Shown piece after piece: positions 8,485-37,708 of a DNA stretch of 55,554 nucleotides. Every line of letters begins with the position of its first letter. The stretch's first letter is position 1. Below the pieces are notes generated by a model. That model worked only from the letters and a program-made list of their open reading frames with translations, was not told the DNA's origin and searched no databases. This DNA is from a virus, in the IMG/VR virus record IMGVR_UViG_3300045988_021851, positions 1-55,554 of that record. One strand, written 5' to 3'. The position numbers and the translations under genes were made by a program.

Positions 8485-8610
8485 TCATTGCAGAGAAGCG
8501 GAAAGCTGTTTCTCAATCTCTTCTTGCACTTTTGCGCGCCAACGCATCGGCACTTCATCAATCGTCATTTTCTTATCTACAAGAATACGTCTCACGTAGA
8601 ATTTAACCAT
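8485..8610 (-). CDS. XkdX-like small tail-module protein (41 aa)
   Basis: MVKFYVRRILVDKKMTIDEVPMRWRAKVQEEIEKQLSASLQ; TAATG overlap with the upstream gene. Size and position after the tail fibres are typical of XkdX-type proteins. Confidence 0.45.
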   Translation of the reverse strand: MVKFYVRRILVDKKMTIDEVPMRWRAKVQEEIEKQLSASLQ

Positions 8611-8990
8611 TATGCTTCACCTCCTGCTACCATATCTGCAAGATCCTGAATTGCTCCGGCGTTTACTTCATGCCCTGCTTTCAGTTCATCAATTGCTTTT
8701 TCCATCTCAGTCTTAGTCCTCAAGCTGACCGTTACGGTGTACGTACCATCTTCAGCGCCATCCTTGCTCTTATTTGGCATATATGAGAATCCCTCGCACT
8801 TAAGATCATCATACTCGCCGGAGATCTGATCGTTGTGTTTAAATGCGACCTTTGATATATTCTCCGATGAAAAGGCATCTGTGATTGTCTTGATTCCGTC
8901 AAAATCTTTCGACTGAATCTGAATATTGCCGAGACTCGCTCCTTCGGCGATCTCGAACTCTGTTTTGTTTTTCAAAATAATTTTGTCCAT
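8610..8990 (-). CDS. hypothetical tail-module protein (126 aa)
   Basis: ORF track; follows the tail fibre genes; GAAAGGAATAAAAATT before the ATG. Confidence 0.55.
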   Translation of the reverse strand: MDKIILKNKTEFEIAEGASLGNIQIQSKDFDGIKTITDAFSSENISKVAFKHNDQISGEYDDLKCEGFSYMPNKSKDGAEDGTYTVTVSLRTKTEMEKAIDELKAGHEVNAGAIQDLADMVAGGEA

Positions 8991-9035
8991 AATTTTTATT
9001 CCTTTCTATGTGTAAATTTACGAGTTACTAAACTT

Positions 9036-9054
9036 ATTTAAACGGCAGTTTAAA
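9036..9054. repeat. inverted repeat, left copy (ATTTAAACGGCAGTTTAAA): candidate recombination site
   Basis: Exact reverse complement of 9868-9886; internal dyad TTTAAAC-GGCA-GTTTAAA. Confidence 0.9.
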
Positions 9055-9367
9055 AAATGATTTGCTCAAGACAAACCACATAGGCAAAGATGATGTCACC
9101 GCGTTTTCAAATTTTTACATGAATCAAAAAAGTACATTTTTGGTGATAGAAAGTACCGGAAACAATACATTAAATAAGGAAATCTTTGGTTTTGATGACG
9201 ATAATTTCAATAATGGCTTCGGGTGTGTCATTTTGTCCGTGAAAATGTCTGTGTGGAGAGGCTTTGCGATTGCAATACCTATTAGCGGTTGGGGACGTAA
9301 TTGCTATATTGGACAAATAAGTGGAGGCGACGGAGCTTTCTTATGGTCAAAAGTATCATTGACATAA
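9038..9367 (+). other. promoterless, RBS-less alternative tail-fibre C-terminal cassette (silent in this orientation)
   Basis: The + frame reads LNGSL-KNDLLKTNHIGKDD.. from inside the repeat to a TAA at 9365-9367. It has the same LNGSL codons and frame as the repeat copy inside gene 9495..10352. Confidence 0.7.
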
Positions 9368-9494
9368 ATCAATCCACGAATCAAGAACATATCCATTAGT
9401 TGTCTGATGTAATCTGGGTTTACAGGTAGTCTAATATTAGCCACGATCAATTTATTTGCGTTTGAATTTGATATTATCCACCAAAGTTATAATT

Positions 9495-10352
9495 TTAAAG
9501 AAGTTTTAAAGCCCAAATTTCATAAGTAATAGTTATTGTAGCACTTGTATAACATAAAAAATAAAGCTCAATAGGCGCATCAATCGTTGCTACAAAAACA
9601 TTAGTTACAGATCTTGTTACACCTGTTTCACCTGCTGTTATCGTACTAACAGGCATATTGACGTTTTTTTCATAAAAAATAAATGATTGTTCTTTTGTGT
9701 CTATAGAAGTGTCTATATACACATCACTATTACAAACTGCATGAGCTTTAAGCCCTAATATATATTTCCCGGGTTGTAGCGTTATAAAGTTGTCACTTGC
9801 CACCCATTTATTTATAACAGATGGAGTTAAGGTGTGTGGACTAGACCATATTATATCGCGGTTATTATTTAAACTGCCGTTTAAATCACTTATCTGCTTT
9901 GCAAGCGTACCATCCAGATTCGGATTTGCCTGCCGCGCATCAAGTGCAAATCCGTTCTCTGTTGTTACCTGATTGTTTACGATACTTTCCGGTTGCAGTG
10001 CGCTTCCGATTTTATCCTTTAGGGCATCTGCCAACTTTATGACGTTTTTCGCTTCATCTAATGTAATTGTGGTTCCATCCAAGTTAATGCTAAGCGTTCC
10101 ACTCTCATCTACGCTCATGCTTTTTCCGTCCGGCTTTACAACTCCGGCATCCTCTGTTGTTGCAATCGCACTAGCACCGCCCACGATAGACTTAGACCAG
10201 TATTCCGTATTACTCGTTGCCGTTCCTGCCGGCACATCTTTTTTTGCAAAATACAATGTGTTATTATGAGTTACTGCATCCAATCTCTTATATGTAGCAT
10301 CTGCGCTCCAATCGCCCTTTGGCACAATTGCTACTCTTCCTGCTATAGCCAT
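9495..10352 (-). CDS. tail fibre / receptor-binding protein (285 aa) containing the right inverted repeat
   Basis: ORF track; follows other fibre genes; residues 157-161 (LNGSL) are encoded by the repeat at 9868-9886. Confidence 0.65.
   Translation of the reverse strand: MAIAGRVAIVPKGDWSADATYKRLDAVTHNNTLYFAKKDVPAGTATSNTEYWSKSIVGGASAIATTEDAGVVKPDGKSMSVDESGTLSINLDGTTITLDEAKNVIKLADALKDKIGSALQPESIVNNQVTTENGFALDARQANPNLDGTLAKQISDLNGSLNNNRDIIWSSPHTLTPSVINKWVASDNFITLQPGKYILGLKAHAVCNSDVYIDTSIDTKEQSFIFYEKNVNMPVSTITAGETGVTRSVTNVFVATIDAPIELYFLCYTSATITITYEIWALKLL
9868..9886. repeat. inverted repeat, right copy (TTTAAACTGCCGTTTAAAT)
   Basis: Exact reverse complement of 9036-9054, located inside the tail fibre ORF. 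Confidence 0.9.
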
Positions 10353-11084
10353 TTAAGCCACCTCCCAATTCAAATTCCCGTCATTGTCAACGACAAAGTT
10401 ATATGCCGCATTGTCCGTGTAAATCAACTCCCCATCCTCATTCACATCAAATTCTGTCATTGTGAGTTTCTTGTTAATCTCGTCTTCGATTCCCTGCACC
10501 CGGTCTGCGCTGTCCTTGGCATCTATGGCAGATTTTGCCGCCTTGGTTTCGGACGTTCCTGCGCTTTTGGCAGATGCTACCGCCTTGGCAGATTCCACTT
10601 TAATATCTGCAAGATAATCCGGGCGCAGATGCTTTTCTTGGATACTTCCCTCTTTCACGATTGCGGACACCTTACCGTCGCTGCCGATTGCAAATGCGAT
10701 TGTATCAGAATCCAAGAACTCATATTCTGTAATCAATGTGGATAAATCTACATTCTGCGTTGTACCATCATCTAGCGTTATCACAAGTTGCTGTGCCTGC
10801 GGGTTGTACTTGAAGTTGACAGCCAACTTTTCCAATTTGGTATCAATGACCGCCTTGGAACCATTCATTTTAACAACTGTCAGAGTTCCGTTGGATTCAT
10901 CCCACAGAATTTCTTTCACAAGCTCATTTGCCTTTGTCAAATCAACCTTAGACGCATCCATAGCAACCACACGATCATCCAGATTGTCAATTGCCAAGTC
11001 CATCTTGTTAAGATTAGATTCATTTACCGCTGTTTTTTCGCTGGGAAGATTCTCCCAGTTGATACGGTTATATATTTTCTGCAT
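10353..11084 (-). CDS. tail fibre/baseplate upper protein-like structural protein
   Basis: N-terminus YNRINWENLPSEKTAVNESNLNKMDLAIDNLDDR resembles fibre/BppU-type N-termini; its stop abuts the next fibre gene. Confidence 0.55.
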   Translation of the reverse strand: MQKIYNRINWENLPSEKTAVNESNLNKMDLAIDNLDDRVVAMDASKVDLTKANELVKEILWDESNGTLTVVKMNGSKAVIDTKLEKLAVNFKYNPQAQQLVITLDDGTTQNVDLSTLITEYEFLDSDTIAFAIGSDGKVSAIVKEGSIQEKHLRPDYLADIKVESAKAVASAKSAGTSETKAAKSAIDAKDSADRVQGIEDEINKKLTMTEFDVNEDGELIYTDNAAYNFVVDNDGNLNWEVA

Positions 11085-32587: not shown

Positions 32588-32593
32588 ATATAG

Positions 32594-32663
32594 TGATCGG
32601 TACGAGATTCGAACTCGTGTTACCACCATGAAAGGTGGTGTCTTACCGCTCGACTAACCGATC
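32594..32663 (-). tRNA. 70-nt tRNA with a non-canonical anticodon loop (6 or 8 nt, centre UCA)
   Basis: Acceptor GATCGGT/ACCGATC, D arm and T arm ACGAG-TTCGAAT-CTCGT are good. The anticodon arm ACCACC-TTTCAT-GGTGGT cannot form a 5-bp stem with a 7-nt loop. Confidence 0.45.
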
Positions 32664-34200: not shown

Positions 34201-34875
34201 TTAAACCGTATTATTTGCCACTGCATCCGTGAATTGTGTGTCGATTACGTGCAATTCTTGGCTCTTTTTCTCGTCCAATCTTGGCAGCTCCTGCGCTGTG
34301 ATTGCCTTGCGTTGCGTGGCATTATCTCCAATTCCCGGCTGATTCATGCCGAATTCGTTATTTCCTACGAACATAGTGCCTACGGGACTATTGGAGTCAT
34401 ATGCACGATCTAGTATACAATCCTTACGAGATCGCTGTAATTTTTGCCACATCTTGAAAGTCAGCGAACTTGGTTCATCACTAGCCCATATATCCATTGT
34501 GTTCGTTGGTATATTACAAAAATAACTAAATGCCACTGTACTTACCAACTTGCTATACACATTGGAGATATATATATAATAATCACAAAGTTTATATAAT
34601 ACCTCTCTATCATACCTGTTACAATTAGTTGGTATAGTTGCATTACCAAGAGGTTTCAAACTCTTGTCTTTAAGTACCGATGTATCCGGGAATAAATGCA
34701 TACCAACATACTGCATTACGGCTTTCCATTGTCTCTGTCCAGCCTTTAACAAATCTTCGATGTGAAATTCTATACAAGCGTTGTCTATTAAATCTTGTAC
34801 AGTTGATGTGTATATCTGTACTGTACCTAGATCCACTATAAGCCTTGTAATATCTACATTCTCTACATCCTGCAT
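34201..34875 (-). CDS. terS: terminase small subunit (putative)
   Basis: Start MQDVENV with GGAGGTG RBS. Central ..LCDYYIYISNVYSKLVSTVAFSYFCNIPTNTMDIWA and C-terminal NSPVGTMFVGNNEFGMN resemble the HTH and FLLKNxxG blocks of small terminases. Confidence 0.55.
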   Translation of the reverse strand: MQDVENVDITRLIVDLGTVQIYTSTVQDLIDNACIEFHIEDLLKAGQRQWKAVMQYVGMHLFPDTSVLKDKSLKPLGNATIPTNCNRYDREVLYKLCDYYIYISNVYSKLVSTVAFSYFCNIPTNTMDIWASDEPSSLTFKMWQKLQRSRKDCILDRAYDSNSPVGTMFVGNNEFGMNQPGIGDNATQRKAITAQELPRLDEKKSQELHVIDTQFTDAVANNTV

Positions 34876-35095
34876 ATATTCACACCTCCAATCCGTTTTA
34901 TTTCTCTGCTTTTGGTATACACTATTTCCGTGTTTAAAGTCAACCCCCAATTTTTTAAGGTGGTATTATATACTTACGCCGCGCGCGTGCGCGGATATAC
35001 ACTTACTATAAACCTATAGGCTTTATATACAGTGTATTATTATTAATTTAAAAGATTAAGAAAAAGAGAGAGAAAGAGAAACATAGTTCTGAAAA

Positions 35096-35146
35096 AGCGA
35101 CGTCAGACGATTGTGTCGCCTTATGTCAGACGATTGTCAGACGATT
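35096..35146. repeat. iteron cluster GTCAGACGATT(G) x3, followed by an AT-rich stretch: candidate replication origin
   Basis: Copies at 35102-35113, 35125-35136 and 35136-35146 (the last two 11 bp apart). The 17-mer AGCGACGTCAGACGATT (35096-35112) recurs at 54366-54382. Confidence 0.55.
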
Positions 35147-35314
35147 TTTTGTAAAAACTGATACTATTCTATCATTTTTGGACTTGTCAAAGACCTAATG
35201 AACCTAGCCTTGTTTATAAAAATTTAATAAAATCATTATAGATAATTTATGAATTATTTTTGAACTTTTGGAAAATCGAAAGACGCGCCCGGAAACGTTG
35301 TTAGAAATACACTC

Positions 35315-35343
35315 TTGACATTTGATCTCGCCAGGCGTACTAT
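35315..35343 (+). promoter_or_regulatory. promoter TTGACA-17-TACTAT with no downstream + strand ORF
   Basis: TTGACA at 35315-35320, 17-nt spacer, TACTAT at 35338-35343. It shares the box TCTTGAC(A/T)TTTGATCT with the promoter at 37216. Confidence 0.6.
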
Positions 35344-35346
35344 ATA

Positions 35347-35527
35347 GGCAAGTCACACGGCATGGATGCTTGCCGATGTGGTGCCGCCAGCGATCCCGGC
35401 GACCACGGATTGAAACAATAGTCTTTTTAGTAAAAGCAAAACATTTAATTTATGTTTTTGTGTCGCGTGCAGTGGATGCTCTGCGCGTGGTATCTGGAGC
35501 AATTCCCCAAGATACAAGGATTGAAAT
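35347..35527 (+). ncRNA. two tandem structured units, each ending in a type I-C CRISPR repeat-like hairpin plus GGATTGAAAC/T handle (solitary repeat units; candidate RNA anti-CRISPR)
   Basis: Repeat-like 1 at 35378-35416: GTGGTGCCGCCAGCGATCCCGGCGACCACGGATTGAAAC. Repeat-like 2 at 35487-35527: GTGGTATCTGGAGCAATTCCCCAAGATACAAGGATTGAAAT. Stems differ but pairing is kept. Confidence 0.5.
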
Positions 35528-35566
35528 AATTATATTCTCAGTGATGAAAATGAGTGGGTCAGATTC

Positions 35567-36307
35567 TTAATCTTTCCCACTCGATTTCTTTTCTCTGTTT
35601 TTGATATTTTTCTTTGCATTCGGATATGTTTCCGCATACCATTCCAGAAAGTTGCCAAACATTTTTTCTTCTGCTTCCTCTCTTACTTTTATCGCTTCTT
35701 CTTTTTCCCGGAAACTCCCTAAATTATAATGTTTTCCCATAAACTCGATCTGCGCTATCCATCTGCTCTTGTTTGCATCCCAATGCACACCCTTATGCCC
35801 GGACTTATTGTTTTTTGGAATTTTTGCGGTTAAATTATTTACATTTGTTCCGGCAATGCAATAATTATCTACTATTTTTTTGCCGTAAATCTTCCCATTT
35901 TTTGAACTATTTTCCCTGCCAAGGCACCCACAGCTTGCCACGCCTCCGTTTTTTAAAGAGCCGGCAGATACTTTTTTAAACTTTCCGCAGTCGCACCGAC
36001 ATAGCCATATAACAGAGCCGTTGTGCGGATCGCGTTCGCTAGTTGCCTTTATTACTTCCAACCGCCCAAATCTTTCTTTCGCTAAATCCTTTTGTTTAAA
36101 TTGTGTCTTTGCCATTAAACATCCGCATCCCTTGCGGTGCGGATCGTCAAGTTGATCTTTGCGAATCCATTTAATTTTTTTGCAATAAGGGCATTCTACT
36201 TGTAAAAAAGATCGTCTGTTTTCCCTTTTGCAATCCAAAACTTTAAAGCCTTTGTAAGTTGTCCCGACAAGATCTTCCGCTTTTGTATATTTTCGTTTTT
36301 CTCCCAT
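35567..36307 (-). CDS. AP2-domain DNA-binding protein with N-terminal Cys-cluster repeats
   Basis: GVHWDANKSRWIAQIEFMGKHYNLGSFREKEEAIKVREEAE = AP2 pattern; ECPYCKK..GCGC and CRCDCGK..CGCL; start MGEKRKY with GGAGAAACC RBS. Confidence 0.6.
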   Translation of the reverse strand: MGEKRKYTKAEDLVGTTYKGFKVLDCKRENRRSFLQVECPYCKKIKWIRKDQLDDPHRKGCGCLMAKTQFKQKDLAKERFGRLEVIKATSERDPHNGSVIWLCRCDCGKFKKVSAGSLKNGGVASCGCLGRENSSKNGKIYGKKIVDNYCIAGTNVNNLTAKIPKNNKSGHKGVHWDANKSRWIAQIEFMGKHYNLGSFREKEEAIKVREEAEEKMFGNFLEWYAETYPNAKKNIKNREKKSSGKD

Positions 36308-36390
36308 GGTTTCTCCGAATATAAAAAGATGTGCAAAACCGCTATTATACGATTTTACACATCCTATGTTACTGTTTATCATATTTAATT

Positions 36391-36874: not shown

Positions 36875-37162
36875 TTATGCGTTCTTTCCTGCTCTGTAGC
36901 ACTCATGGAATGCATCTGTGAGCCTTCCAAGCTGTTCCGGTGTAAGTTCTTCTTTCAGATCGTCCGGAACCCATTTGTAAGACTGCCGGAAAGTTTCGCC
37001 ATACTTTCCGACCTTTGATGCTTTTTCGACCTGATCCAGCTTGTACATCTGACCAAGTTCTTCAGTTGTAATCAATCCGGTTTTTACGGCTTTTCTTCCC
37101 TCTCTTGTTAAGATGCTCATTGCATCCTGTTTCTTTACTACCCCTATTCCGTTAATTTTCAT
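36875..37162 (-). CDS. hypothetical protein (95 aa)
   Basis: ORF track; AAAGGAGAAAC RBS. Confidence 0.55.
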   Translation of the reverse strand: MKINGIGVVKKQDAMSILTREGRKAVKTGLITTEELGQMYKLDQVEKASKVGKYGETFRQSYKWVPDDLKEELTPEQLGRLTDAFHECYRAGKNA

Positions 37163-37215: not shown

Positions 37216-37329
37216 TTGACTTTTGATCTATTATATGTTATTCTTAGCCACGTAAGTTATGGAAGATTAGGTTTAGTACCTATTCAAATTTACGTGACTG
37301 TTGCCGGTGGATTATCCACCGGCATTTTT
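37216..37329 (+). ncRNA. candidate small RNA: promoter TTGACT-17-TATTCT plus about 80-nt structured RNA plus + strand terminator
   Basis: No + strand ORF. CACGTAA..TTACGTG long-range stem; GCCGGTGG-attat-CCACCGGC followed by ATTTTT (T-run only on the + strand). Confidence 0.35.
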
Positions 37330-37708
37330 AATATTTGTATTTGCCGGTTTTATCAAAATCTGATTCCCCGATTTCAACGATGCCGTTTTCGGTTTCTCTC
37401 ATAAATTTTTGATAATATGCTTCCCCATTCCGGGAGCATATTAATTCGTATAACTCCTTATCGGATAACTCTTTTCCATCCAGAAAATCATCCACTTTCC
37501 CATAATCAAGATCGCCGCTCTCGTCTTGGAAATCAGCATCATCAAATGATTTCCCACACTTTTCTAAAAGTGCCGTGTCATAAAGTGGAAAATCTGGATC
37601 GCTAATTATTCCCCTTTCGTCCAGTTCATCAAAAAGCTCCTTGAAGCTTTCCGCTTCCTGCTCATATTCCACAAGTCCGTTCACGCTTGTTGCTTTCCAT
37701 TTAATCAT
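37328..37708 (-). CDS. strongly acidic protein (126 aa)
   Basis: Roughly 30% Asp+Glu by eye (DELDERGIISDPDF, DDADFQDESGDLDYGKVDDFLDGKELSDKE); GAAAGGAGAA RBS; driven by the duplicated consensus promoter. Confidence 0.6.
   Translation of the reverse strand: MIKWKATSVNGLVEYEQEAESFKELFDELDERGIISDPDFPLYDTALLEKCGKSFDDADFQDESGDLDYGKVDDFLDGKELSDKELYELICSRNGEAYYQKFMRETENGIVEIGESDFDKTGKYKY

Follow-up and report, generated by a model that had tools for sequence, protein, structure and literature searches.

What does a virus encode in a short, promoter-led segment of two tandem hairpin-rich units that end like CRISPR repeats? The question is raised by a plus-strand locus of the IMG/VR virus record IMGVR_UViG_3300045988_021851, which was analysed as one stretch of 55,554 nucleotides (hereafter, the window). 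The original prediction, made without database searches, was that the locus specifies solitary type I-C repeat units acting as an RNA anti-CRISPR. Comparative analysis assigns the units to a new RNA family, large, well supported and absent from Rfam, and indicates that they combine single-stranded elements resembling those of a type I-C repeat with a second hairpin and a covarying loop–loop contact. In our judgement, the chances are about even that the locus encodes a type I-C-directed RNA anti-CRISPR or a mimic of CRISPR RNA (crRNA).

The promoter noticed in the original prediction is present (Table 1), and the distance from the end of its -10 box to the G of the GUC that opens unit 1 is 8 nt. 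Two related units follow, their starts 110 nt apart rather than the 109 nt first given. The hairpins with the conserved loop box (UGGAUGCU in the RNA, TGGATGCT in the DNA) occur in both units, although their boundaries had been placed a few bases off, and the loops of the second hairpins read AGCGATCC or AGCAATTCC in the DNA. The minimum-energy fold of unit 1 consists of two hairpins, and the fold of the 262-nt plus-strand RNA as a whole beats those of all 200 of 200 shuffled sequences (z = -3.5). The description of the segment as a GC-rich island ending in a hairpin and T-tract also holds, with a GC content of up to 0.53 compared with 0.23-0.40 in the flanks and a strongly folding hairpin at 35552-35582. 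This terminator was missed by a simple terminator scan because the loop rule of the scan is too strict; its hairpin overlaps the stop codon of the minus-strand open reading frame (ORF) 35567-36382. Across the whole window, the covariance model described below matches only the two units. The bare 10-mer tail has 15 matches at no more than one mismatch, compared with 14.6 expected, and is not enriched, so that the tail alone is meaningless and only the whole unit counts. The segment had been said to lack a plus-strand ORF; an 82-aa ORF with a TTG start (35322-35570) does exist in the mechanical sense, but its translation is ruled out by the indels and stem covariation in relatives, where the reading frame is not kept (units of 63-67 nt, linkers of 30-56 nt). 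The RNA gene is oriented against almost all protein genes of the window and stands back-to-back with a minus-strand promoter.

Table 1. Coordinates of the RNA locus and of neighbouring genes in the window
Feature	Position	Strand	Details
Sigma-70-type promoter	35315..35343	+	-35 box TTGACA 35315-35320, 17-nt spacer, -10 box TACTAT 35338-35343; 10/12 matches
Unit 1, 65 nt	35352..35416	+	Covariance-model match, 71 bits, E = 1.5e-17; 5′ GUC; invariant GG at 35380-35381
Unit 1, hairpin 1	Arms 35356-35362 / 35371-35378; loop 1 (L1) 35363-35370	+	L1 UGGAUGCU; read from the sequence
Unit 1, hairpin 2	~35380-35404; loop 2 (L2) 35389-35396	+	L2 AGCGAUCC; read from the sequence
Unit 1, tail	35407-35416	+	RNA GGAUUGAAAC; DNA GGATTGAAAC
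Linker (‘pseudo-spacer’), 45 nt	35417..35461	+	5′ AAUAG; small 3′ A/U hairpin (AAAACAU 35438-35444 pairs with AUGUUUU 35452-35458) abutting unit 2
Unit 2, 66 nt	35462..35527	+	Covariance-model match, 81.4 bits, E = 1.3e-20; 5′ GUCGCG
Unit 2, loop 1 (L1)	35473-35480	+	UGGAUGCU; CGCGUGG ends at 35490
Unit 2, hairpin 2	35490-35515; loop 2 (L2) 35498-35506	+	L2 AGCAAUUCC; read from the sequence
Unit 2, tail	35518-35527	+	RNA GGAUUGAAAU; DNA GGATTGAAAT
Trailer and intrinsic terminator	35528..35602	+	24 nt AAUUAUAUUCUCAGUGAUGAAAAU, hairpin (GAGUGGG 35552-35558 pairs with CCCACUC 35576-35582), then U-rich tract
HNH/AP2 homing-endonuclease-like gene	35567-36382	-	Wedged between the RNA locus and the operon of the 95-aa gene
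Conserved 95-aa protein	36875..37162	-	Convergent with the RNA; three inserted ORFs between them in the window
126-aa acidic AcrIIA15-like protein	37328..37708	-	Resembles the Cas9-inhibiting C-terminal domain; two genes past the 95-aa gene

Well over a hundred independent phage and conjugative-element loci share this architecture. Scanning IMG/VR with a pattern of loop 1 and the tail returned at least 118 stretches and, among the matches listed, 58 loci with true homologues, carrying one or two units each. A covariance model built from 40 distinct units and run on related phages, a check that had been proposed with the original prediction, recovered 98 units in 59 viral loci; the model-based alignment (A3) holds 81 distinct units, and searches starting from a neighbouring 95-aa protein add more. 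The consensus unit, 63-67 nt long, is composed of GUC, hairpin 1 of 7-10 bp with the loop UGGAUGCU, YGG, hairpin 2 of 6-9 bp with the loop AGCRAU(U)CC, and the tail (A/C)(C/A)GGAUUGAAAY. When the window was compared with Rfam, only tRNAs reached the gathering threshold and the region 34900-35700 gave four weak, unrelated matches at E up to 10, so membership in another defined RNA family, named at the outset as an observation that would speak against the prediction, found no support there. A BLAST search with the locus against GenBank phages and PLSDB plasmids returned no homologue.

Both stems are supported by extensive covariation. In hairpin 1, 94% of the alignment cells are paired and seven of the seven pairs show double compensatory changes among the 81 units, with a covariation score of 0.748 compared with 0.218 in shuffled alignments, a value reached by none of 500 shuffles. 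Hairpin 2 occurs with at least 15 unrelated stem sequences, all of which pair, and double changes affect six of its six pairs among 20 diverse units; the compensatory change that had been recognized between the two second stems of the window is thus upheld across the family alignment. The alignment further revealed a feature that is absent from the first account of the locus, namely, covariation between the two loops. Loop 1 (GGAUGCU) is complementary to loop 2 (AGC-R-AUCC) over seven pairs, 91% of the cells being paired. Two of these pairs covary: one is CG in 63 units, GC in 15, UA in two, UG in one and unpaired in none, and the other is GC in 60, AU in eight, UA in two and GU in two. Two-sided changes between the loops occupy 27 cells, as opposed to 4.4 in shuffled alignments, and none of 500 shuffles reaches the observed value. 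The variants of this contact were first met in units found through the neighbouring protein, not through the loop pattern, and a second protein-first set repeats the covariation (GC 27, UA 11).

The compensating bases always reside in the same unit (loci L025, L153 and L21x), for which reason we rejected pairing between loop 1 of one unit and loop 2 of the next; the contact must be either internal to a unit or formed by two copies of the same molecule. As only 0-3 nt join the two hairpins, a full 7-bp intramolecular kiss would require bent stems. RNAalifold proposed, in addition, a pseudoknot between loop 2 and the tail (GGAUUG). Here, complementarity is 95.5%, but the covariation barely exceeds that of shuffled alignments, 18-34 of 500 shuffles reaching the observed values, and the 2-nt connector makes the pairing sterically doubtful; we retain it as no more than a possibility.

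The signals that flank the units recur in relatives too. Among 52 distinct regions upstream of first units, the average score of promoters that end 4-10 nt ahead of GUC is 8.8 of 12, compared with 6.3 for shifted controls, and a score of at least 10 is attained by 23 of the 52 regions but by only two of 595 control positions; the promoter sequences themselves differ among lineages. In 59 distinct relatives, the last unit is followed by a short A/U-rich stretch, often a small hairpin, and then a strong terminator hairpin with a U-tract. From this conservation we infer that the locus is a small non-coding RNA gene.

A scan of species genomes (n=185,579) detected true units only in gut Clostridia and always in a phage-like context, namely, in Dorea, Blautia, Ruminococcus, Ca. 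Limivivens, Ca. Cottocaccamicrobium, two other Clostridia/Clostridiales genomes and a 7-kb contig binned as Selenomonadaceae that carries five units, all host assignments of carriers resting on metagenome-assembled genomes. Viral contigs and conjugative elements harbour relatives, as do the prophages of Lachnospiraceae-type genomes. On the Selenomonadaceae-binned contig (L153, 1-960), the five units form two separate promoter-led sets, of two and three units, each with the same type of terminator, which shows that the module can duplicate in tandem.

How close, then, are the units to type I-C repeats? Their single-stranded elements, GUC, YGG and GGAUUGAAAY, match elements of the I-C repeat in the same order, so that the I-C-like tail singled out in the original prediction is genuine and is accompanied by GUC(GC) at the opening of the unit and YGG after hairpin 1. 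GUC is found in 80 of 81 units, the GG that follows hairpin 1 hardly varies and UUGAAA does not vary at all. The constancy of the tail, like that of loop 1, is partly circular, since both motifs had been built into the first search pattern and the detection model; the protein-first sets lessen this bias without removing it. In the I-C repeat of Firmicutes, the stem measures 7 bp, the loop 5 nt and the 3′ overhang 11 nt; recognition by Cas5c depends chiefly on U22-G23-G24 and the 3′ overhang rather than on the loop or 5′ overhang, and Cas5c then keeps hold of the 11-nt handle within Cascade (PMC8524198). In Roseburia hominis (Lachnospiraceae), the I-C repeat is GTCGCTCCCTGTGAGGGGAGCGTGGATTGAAAT (PMC4645204), and the I-C repeats of gut viruses and Roseburia have the form GTCGC-stem-loop-GCGTGGATTGAAAT (PMC4645204; for the viruses, tables of PMC10651486). 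The canonical R. hominis repeat and the units share the 5′ GUCGC, a stem-loop with UGG directly 3′ of it and the GGAUUGAAAY end, whereas the 7-bp stem, 5-nt loop, length of 32-33 nt, identical copies, variable spacers and adjacent cas genes belong to the canonical repeat only. Canonical I-C repeats present in one of the loci (L130) scored only ~15 bits with the unit model, and a search for such repeats at the same position in relatives without units found none.

On this comparison, the unit would be most simply described as an I-C repeat with hairpin 2 inserted between UGG and AUUGAAAY. The original prediction was correct in that a repeat-like hairpin exists, but it assigned this role to the second hairpin; the arrangement of the elements suggests the reverse, with hairpin 1 and UGG forming the repeat-like hairpin and hairpin 2 the insertion, or that both assignments apply. 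The term solitary repeat unit, in its published sense, had to be abandoned, given that the unit is 65 nt long, not 32-33 nt, and that only its single-stranded parts match the repeat.

The published RNA anti-CRISPRs (Racrs) nevertheless provide the most direct standard of comparison. A type I-C RNA anti-CRISPR has been validated experimentally, and RacrIC1, from a prophage of Bifidobacterium pseudocatenulatum, resembles the locus in being a small RNA of a mobile element with its own promoter and repeat features, located away from cas genes and near acr-like genes (PMC10651486). The promoter predicted immediately upstream of Racrs has its counterpart in the one before unit 1. However, published Racrs are single copies of 28-37 nt that are at least ~90% identical to the repeat over nearly the full length (PMC10651486), whereas the 63-67-nt unit matches repeats only at GUC(GC), YGG and the handle and falls outside that identity range; because near-full-length identity is lacking, we do not file the family among the published solitary repeat units. 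The inserted second hairpin, the loop–loop pairing, the sets of one to three units, the conserved linkers and the tie to the 95-aa protein further set the locus apart from Racrs, and the loop motifs of the units are absent from the portion of the solitary-repeat supplementary tables of PMC10651486 that was available. Precedent for elaborate, structured RNA mimics comes from rAcrIIA1, reported to be a phage small RNA that mimics the entire guide of Cas9, crRNA plus trans-activating crRNA (tracrRNA), and unrelated to the locus in sequence or structure (10.64898/2026.06.03.729762).

We favour the reading of the locus as an I-C-directed RNA anti-CRISPR or crRNA mimic on several grounds: its invariant elements are repeat-like, it is confined to mobile elements and has a promoter of its own, none of the ORFs tested between 33 and 48 kb matches a Cas family, the modal linker length is spacer-like and the neighbourhood resembles that of anti-CRISPR genes. 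In addition, an I-C RNA anti-CRISPR has been published, and such RNAs cluster with acr genes (PMC10651486). Under this reading, the promoter would start transcription at or next to GUC, and the RNA, containing two ~65-nt units, would end at the intrinsic terminator. Each unit would be an I-C repeat derivative that keeps the 5′ GUC, a hairpin with YGG and the 3′ handle GGAUUGAAAY, with a second hairpin inserted between YGG and the handle whose loop would base-pair with that of the first. Produced in abundance, this RNA would be taken up by the host I-C machinery in place of the genuine pre-crRNA, and Cas5c could bind or cut at the base of one or both hairpins. Together, the handle, the ~34-nt linker and the hairpin after it would resemble a crRNA and act as a decoy onto which Cas5c, Cas7 and Cas8c are loaded, so that Cascade would be drained or mis-assembled and the phage or conjugative element protected. 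Transcription, binding of Cas proteins and inhibition are all deduced here from the sequence.

The linkers bear on this reading and on two alternatives to it. Some units stand alone and others form promoter-led sets of two or three, and half of the 38 distinct linkers (19 of 38) measure 34±1 nt, a mode that spans several unrelated linker families and equals the 33-34-nt length of I-C spacers (PMC8524198); other lengths fall in groups at 39-40 and 44-46 nt, with single linkers of 30, 49 and 56 nt. In mature I-C crRNA, the handle measures 11 nt, the spacer 33-34 nt and the hairpin 21 nt (PMC8524198); the handle, the ~34-nt linker and hairpin 1 of the next unit in a multi-unit transcript have these dimensions. 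The linkers open with a semi-conserved AAUAG, AAUUA or AUUAG and typically carry a small 3′ hairpin that abuts the next GUC; linkers and trailers are conserved within a phage lineage and differ between lineages. Such conservation between related phages implies that they are not acquired spacers.

This last point largely excludes a genuine phage mini-CRISPR array that steers the host I-C system against competing mobile elements, an explanation that we consider very improbable. The succession of a promoter-led repeat-like unit, a ~34-nt linker and another repeat-like unit does recall such arrays, and virus-borne mini-arrays are known (PMC10651486). Yet units of the same array are diverged and 65 nt long instead of 32-33 nt, the would-be spacers are homologous between unrelated phages, with a shared start motif and hairpin folds, and single-unit loci are common. 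The earlier remark that the tandem, diverged, two-hairpin layout is unlike a normal array is borne out by the diverged 65-nt units and the conserved linkers.

A more serious, if still improbable, alternative is that the units are the pseudo-repeats of a guide-type viral Cracr or crlRNA, in which, once Cas5c has processed the RNA, the handle and the linker or trailer would direct the host I-C Cascade, through a partial match, to repress the promoter of the cas operon, a toxin or a defence gene. Published I-C crlRNAs comprise a Cas5c-cut hairpin, the 11-nt handle and ~37-39 nt to the loop of a 3′ hairpin, with TTC or TTA as the adjacent motif (10.1101/2024.12.27.630466), and the locus similarly has a handle followed by ~24 nt and a hairpin. 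Viral crlRNA arrays with two or three pseudo-spacers, I-C included, have been described (10.1101/2024.10.29.618823). Thus, Cracr arrays and host I-C crlRNAs have in common with the locus a pseudo-repeat of hairpin plus 11-nt handle, a short pseudo-spacer and a 3′ hairpin (10.1101/2024.10.29.618823; 10.1101/2024.12.27.630466); Cracrs also form stackable multi-unit arrays on phages and plasmids, and I-C is among the types they target. Conservation of linkers and trailers within a lineage, combined with their difference between lineages, is likewise what a guide would be expected to display. Conversely, Cracrs are defined by a pseudo-spacer matching a cas or toxin promoter, whereas the locus resembles them in layout, and its pseudo-repeats are twice the normal length and contain conserved kissing loops. 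A search confined to the window revealed no further copy of the first 21 nt of the linker (35417-35437, allowing up to three mismatches) or of the 24-nt trailer, and no self-targeting by these pseudo-spacers. Furthermore, even very distant lineages agree in part over the 4-5 nt directly after the handle, and a hairpin takes up much of most linkers, both odd features for a seed; conservation is strongest in the loops of the units, not in the pseudo-spacers.

A number of observations also weigh against an I-C-directed RNA anti-CRISPR or crRNA mimic. The first handle base of the unit is C or A, not U, and part of the constancy of loop 1 and the tail stems from how the units were found. Conserved linkers with an AAUAG or AAUUA start and hairpins are unlike crRNA spacers, and a strict, Cas7-like quantisation of the linkers in 6-nt steps, seen in a first sample (33-35, 39-40 and 44-46 nt), was rejected when 60 added loci yielded lengths of 30, 49 and 56 nt. 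I-C systems are documented in the literature at the genus or family level, in Blautia (PMC11737165) and, by the matching repeat of R. hominis, in Lachnospiraceae (PMC4645204), and their presence in the actual carriers is an extrapolation from there; transcription is likewise deduced from the conservation of promoter and terminator only. Finally, the second hairpin, the conserved loops and the loop–loop pairing are superfluous for simple repeat mimicry and point to an extra or different constraint. The second hairpin and the loop contact may serve to prevent cleavage or shift its site, to make the RNA more stable or to hold two copies of it together. More specifically, and only tentatively, the family could represent a new class of structured RNA anti-CRISPRs in which a split I-C repeat forms a kissing-loop ‘super-repeat’ that traps or mis-processes Cas5c and Cascade, possibly together with a 95-aa partner, and which is widespread in Lachnospiraceae gut phages and conjugative elements and was missed by repeat-similarity searches.

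The 95-aa protein is the most constant neighbour of the RNA. When IMG/VR was searched with this protein alone, 43 of 49 loci had units nearby on the opposite strand, and a profile of divergent homologues yielded 218 candidate stretches, with units in 54 of the 60 new loci searched; overall, ~89% of the protein-first loci contain nearby opposite-strand units convergent with the gene. Whereas 1.3 kb and three ORFs separate the two in the window, the units lie immediately downstream of the 95-aa gene in the divergent loci L210-L226, and the pairing is also found in prophages of the unit-carrying genomes listed above. It extends to integrative conjugative elements (L229-L232, at ~8550-10500 of each locus), which encode a relaxase, a TraG-type coupling protein, a 2,565-aa SNF2-type helicase, a resolvase and ImpB/YolD; there, the 95-aa gene is preceded by a separate small helix-turn-helix gene and accompanied by four units, one directly after the gene and three upstream. 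The structural model of the 95-aa protein is a confident all-helical fold (predicted local distance difference test, pLDDT, 90.8), the protein is hydrophilic, and no match was found in Pfam, PHROGs, PADLOC, Protein Data Bank sequences or, using Foldseek, among solved and viral structures. In some lineages, the protein has gained an N-terminal XRE-type helix-turn-helix domain by fusion and measures ~140-190 aa (L025, 2263-2782; L134; L173). Some anti-CRISPR proteins carry their own helix-turn-helix repressor domain, which the fusion resembles by analogy, although it would fit an ordinary transcription factor equally well. The 95-aa protein is a candidate RNA partner or anti-CRISPR protein.

This association is also an argument for a structured RNA unrelated to CRISPR, which would work with the 95-aa protein or control neighbouring transcription, for instance, as an RNA–protein pair directed against another defence system, an antisense or convergent-transcription regulator, or an addiction module, its I-C-like ends being convergent or coincidental. 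The tight convergent synteny across deep divergence and two kinds of mobile elements, the loop–loop covariation and invariant loops, which repeat mimicry does not explain, and the lack of a known fold or family match for the protein would all suit such an RNA. Nevertheless, we regard it as unlikely. Three separate elements, GUC, YGG and GGAUUGAAAY, agree with the I-C repeat, their order included, and the distance to the 95-aa gene in the window indicates that a 3′ overlap or antisense action is not required. The hydrophilic, helical protein is not a small membrane toxin; a type I toxin–antitoxin system is ruled out by the gene layout, and one of type III (ToxI/CptI type) by the 30-56-nt linkers, the diverged stems and the location of the downstream genes on the minus strand, no plus-strand gene following the units.

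A second protein-coding gene, 1.8 kb from the RNA locus, provides context for the preferred reading of an I-C-directed RNA anti-CRISPR or crRNA mimic without being part of the RNA. The 126-aa protein matches 8jft_C in a phmmer search (E = 8.6e-4), and Foldseek aligns its AlphaFold model with the same structure (E = 4e-4, probability 1.0, template modelling (TM) scores 0.55/0.61); a shallow profile search gave no sequence match to 8jft_C. Judging from this model, the protein is likely to be AcrIIA15-like and may be a type II-A anti-CRISPR encoded by a phage of gut Clostridia, and its gene likely marks the neighbourhood as an anti-CRISPR locus.

If the I-C-directed reading is true, its implications would reach beyond this phage. 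Type I-C is a major CRISPR type of gut Clostridia, and the human gut would harbour remodelled derivatives of its repeats in abundance. To date, RNA anti-CRISPRs have been discovered through near-perfect copies of repeats, an approach that such derivatives would escape, and RNA-based counter-defence would be much commoner and structurally more diverse than catalogues show. The family is a testable system, offering a 65-nt fold with covarying stems and a loop contact, two candidate Cas5c sites per unit and a protein neighbour, and could reveal how the assembly of Cas5c and Cascade is subverted; it could also yield a compact inhibitor or scaffold for I-C genome-editing tools and improve the annotation of hosts and anti-defence genes for gut phages and conjugative elements. 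Even without a link to CRISPR, a large new RNA family would be added to those outside Rfam.

The window as a whole represents a temperate phage, with genes for an integrase, a C5 methylase, a Rha regulator and a terminase as well as tRNAs; the closest relatives of the terminase come from Clostridium phages and from uncultured phages of human faeces. Of the genes around the RNA locus, almost none is annotated. The HNH/AP2 gene next to the terminator occurs only in some relatives and is missing at this position in many. One of the four clustered tRNAs (32593-32663, minus strand) has the anticodon loop UUUCAUG and hence the anticodon UCA, for which ARAGORN gave a 4-base ‘ttca’; this tRNA may be an opal (UGA) suppressor, hinting at stop-codon recoding, which could affect the ORF calls in the window.

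Upstream of the RNA gene, three direct GTCAGACGATTGT repeats (35102-35148, plus strand) with an operator-like arrangement lie between the minus-strand promoter (35190->35161) and a 249-aa ORF (34201-34950). In two relatives (L003 and L079), repeated TGTTGCA motifs take the place of these repeats, suggesting that the putative regulator–operator module beside the RNA gene is swappable. Just upstream of the same 249-aa minus-strand ORF, the AT-rich leader contains a GC-rich near-palindrome, CGCCGCGCGCGTGCGCGG (34977-34996, plus strand).

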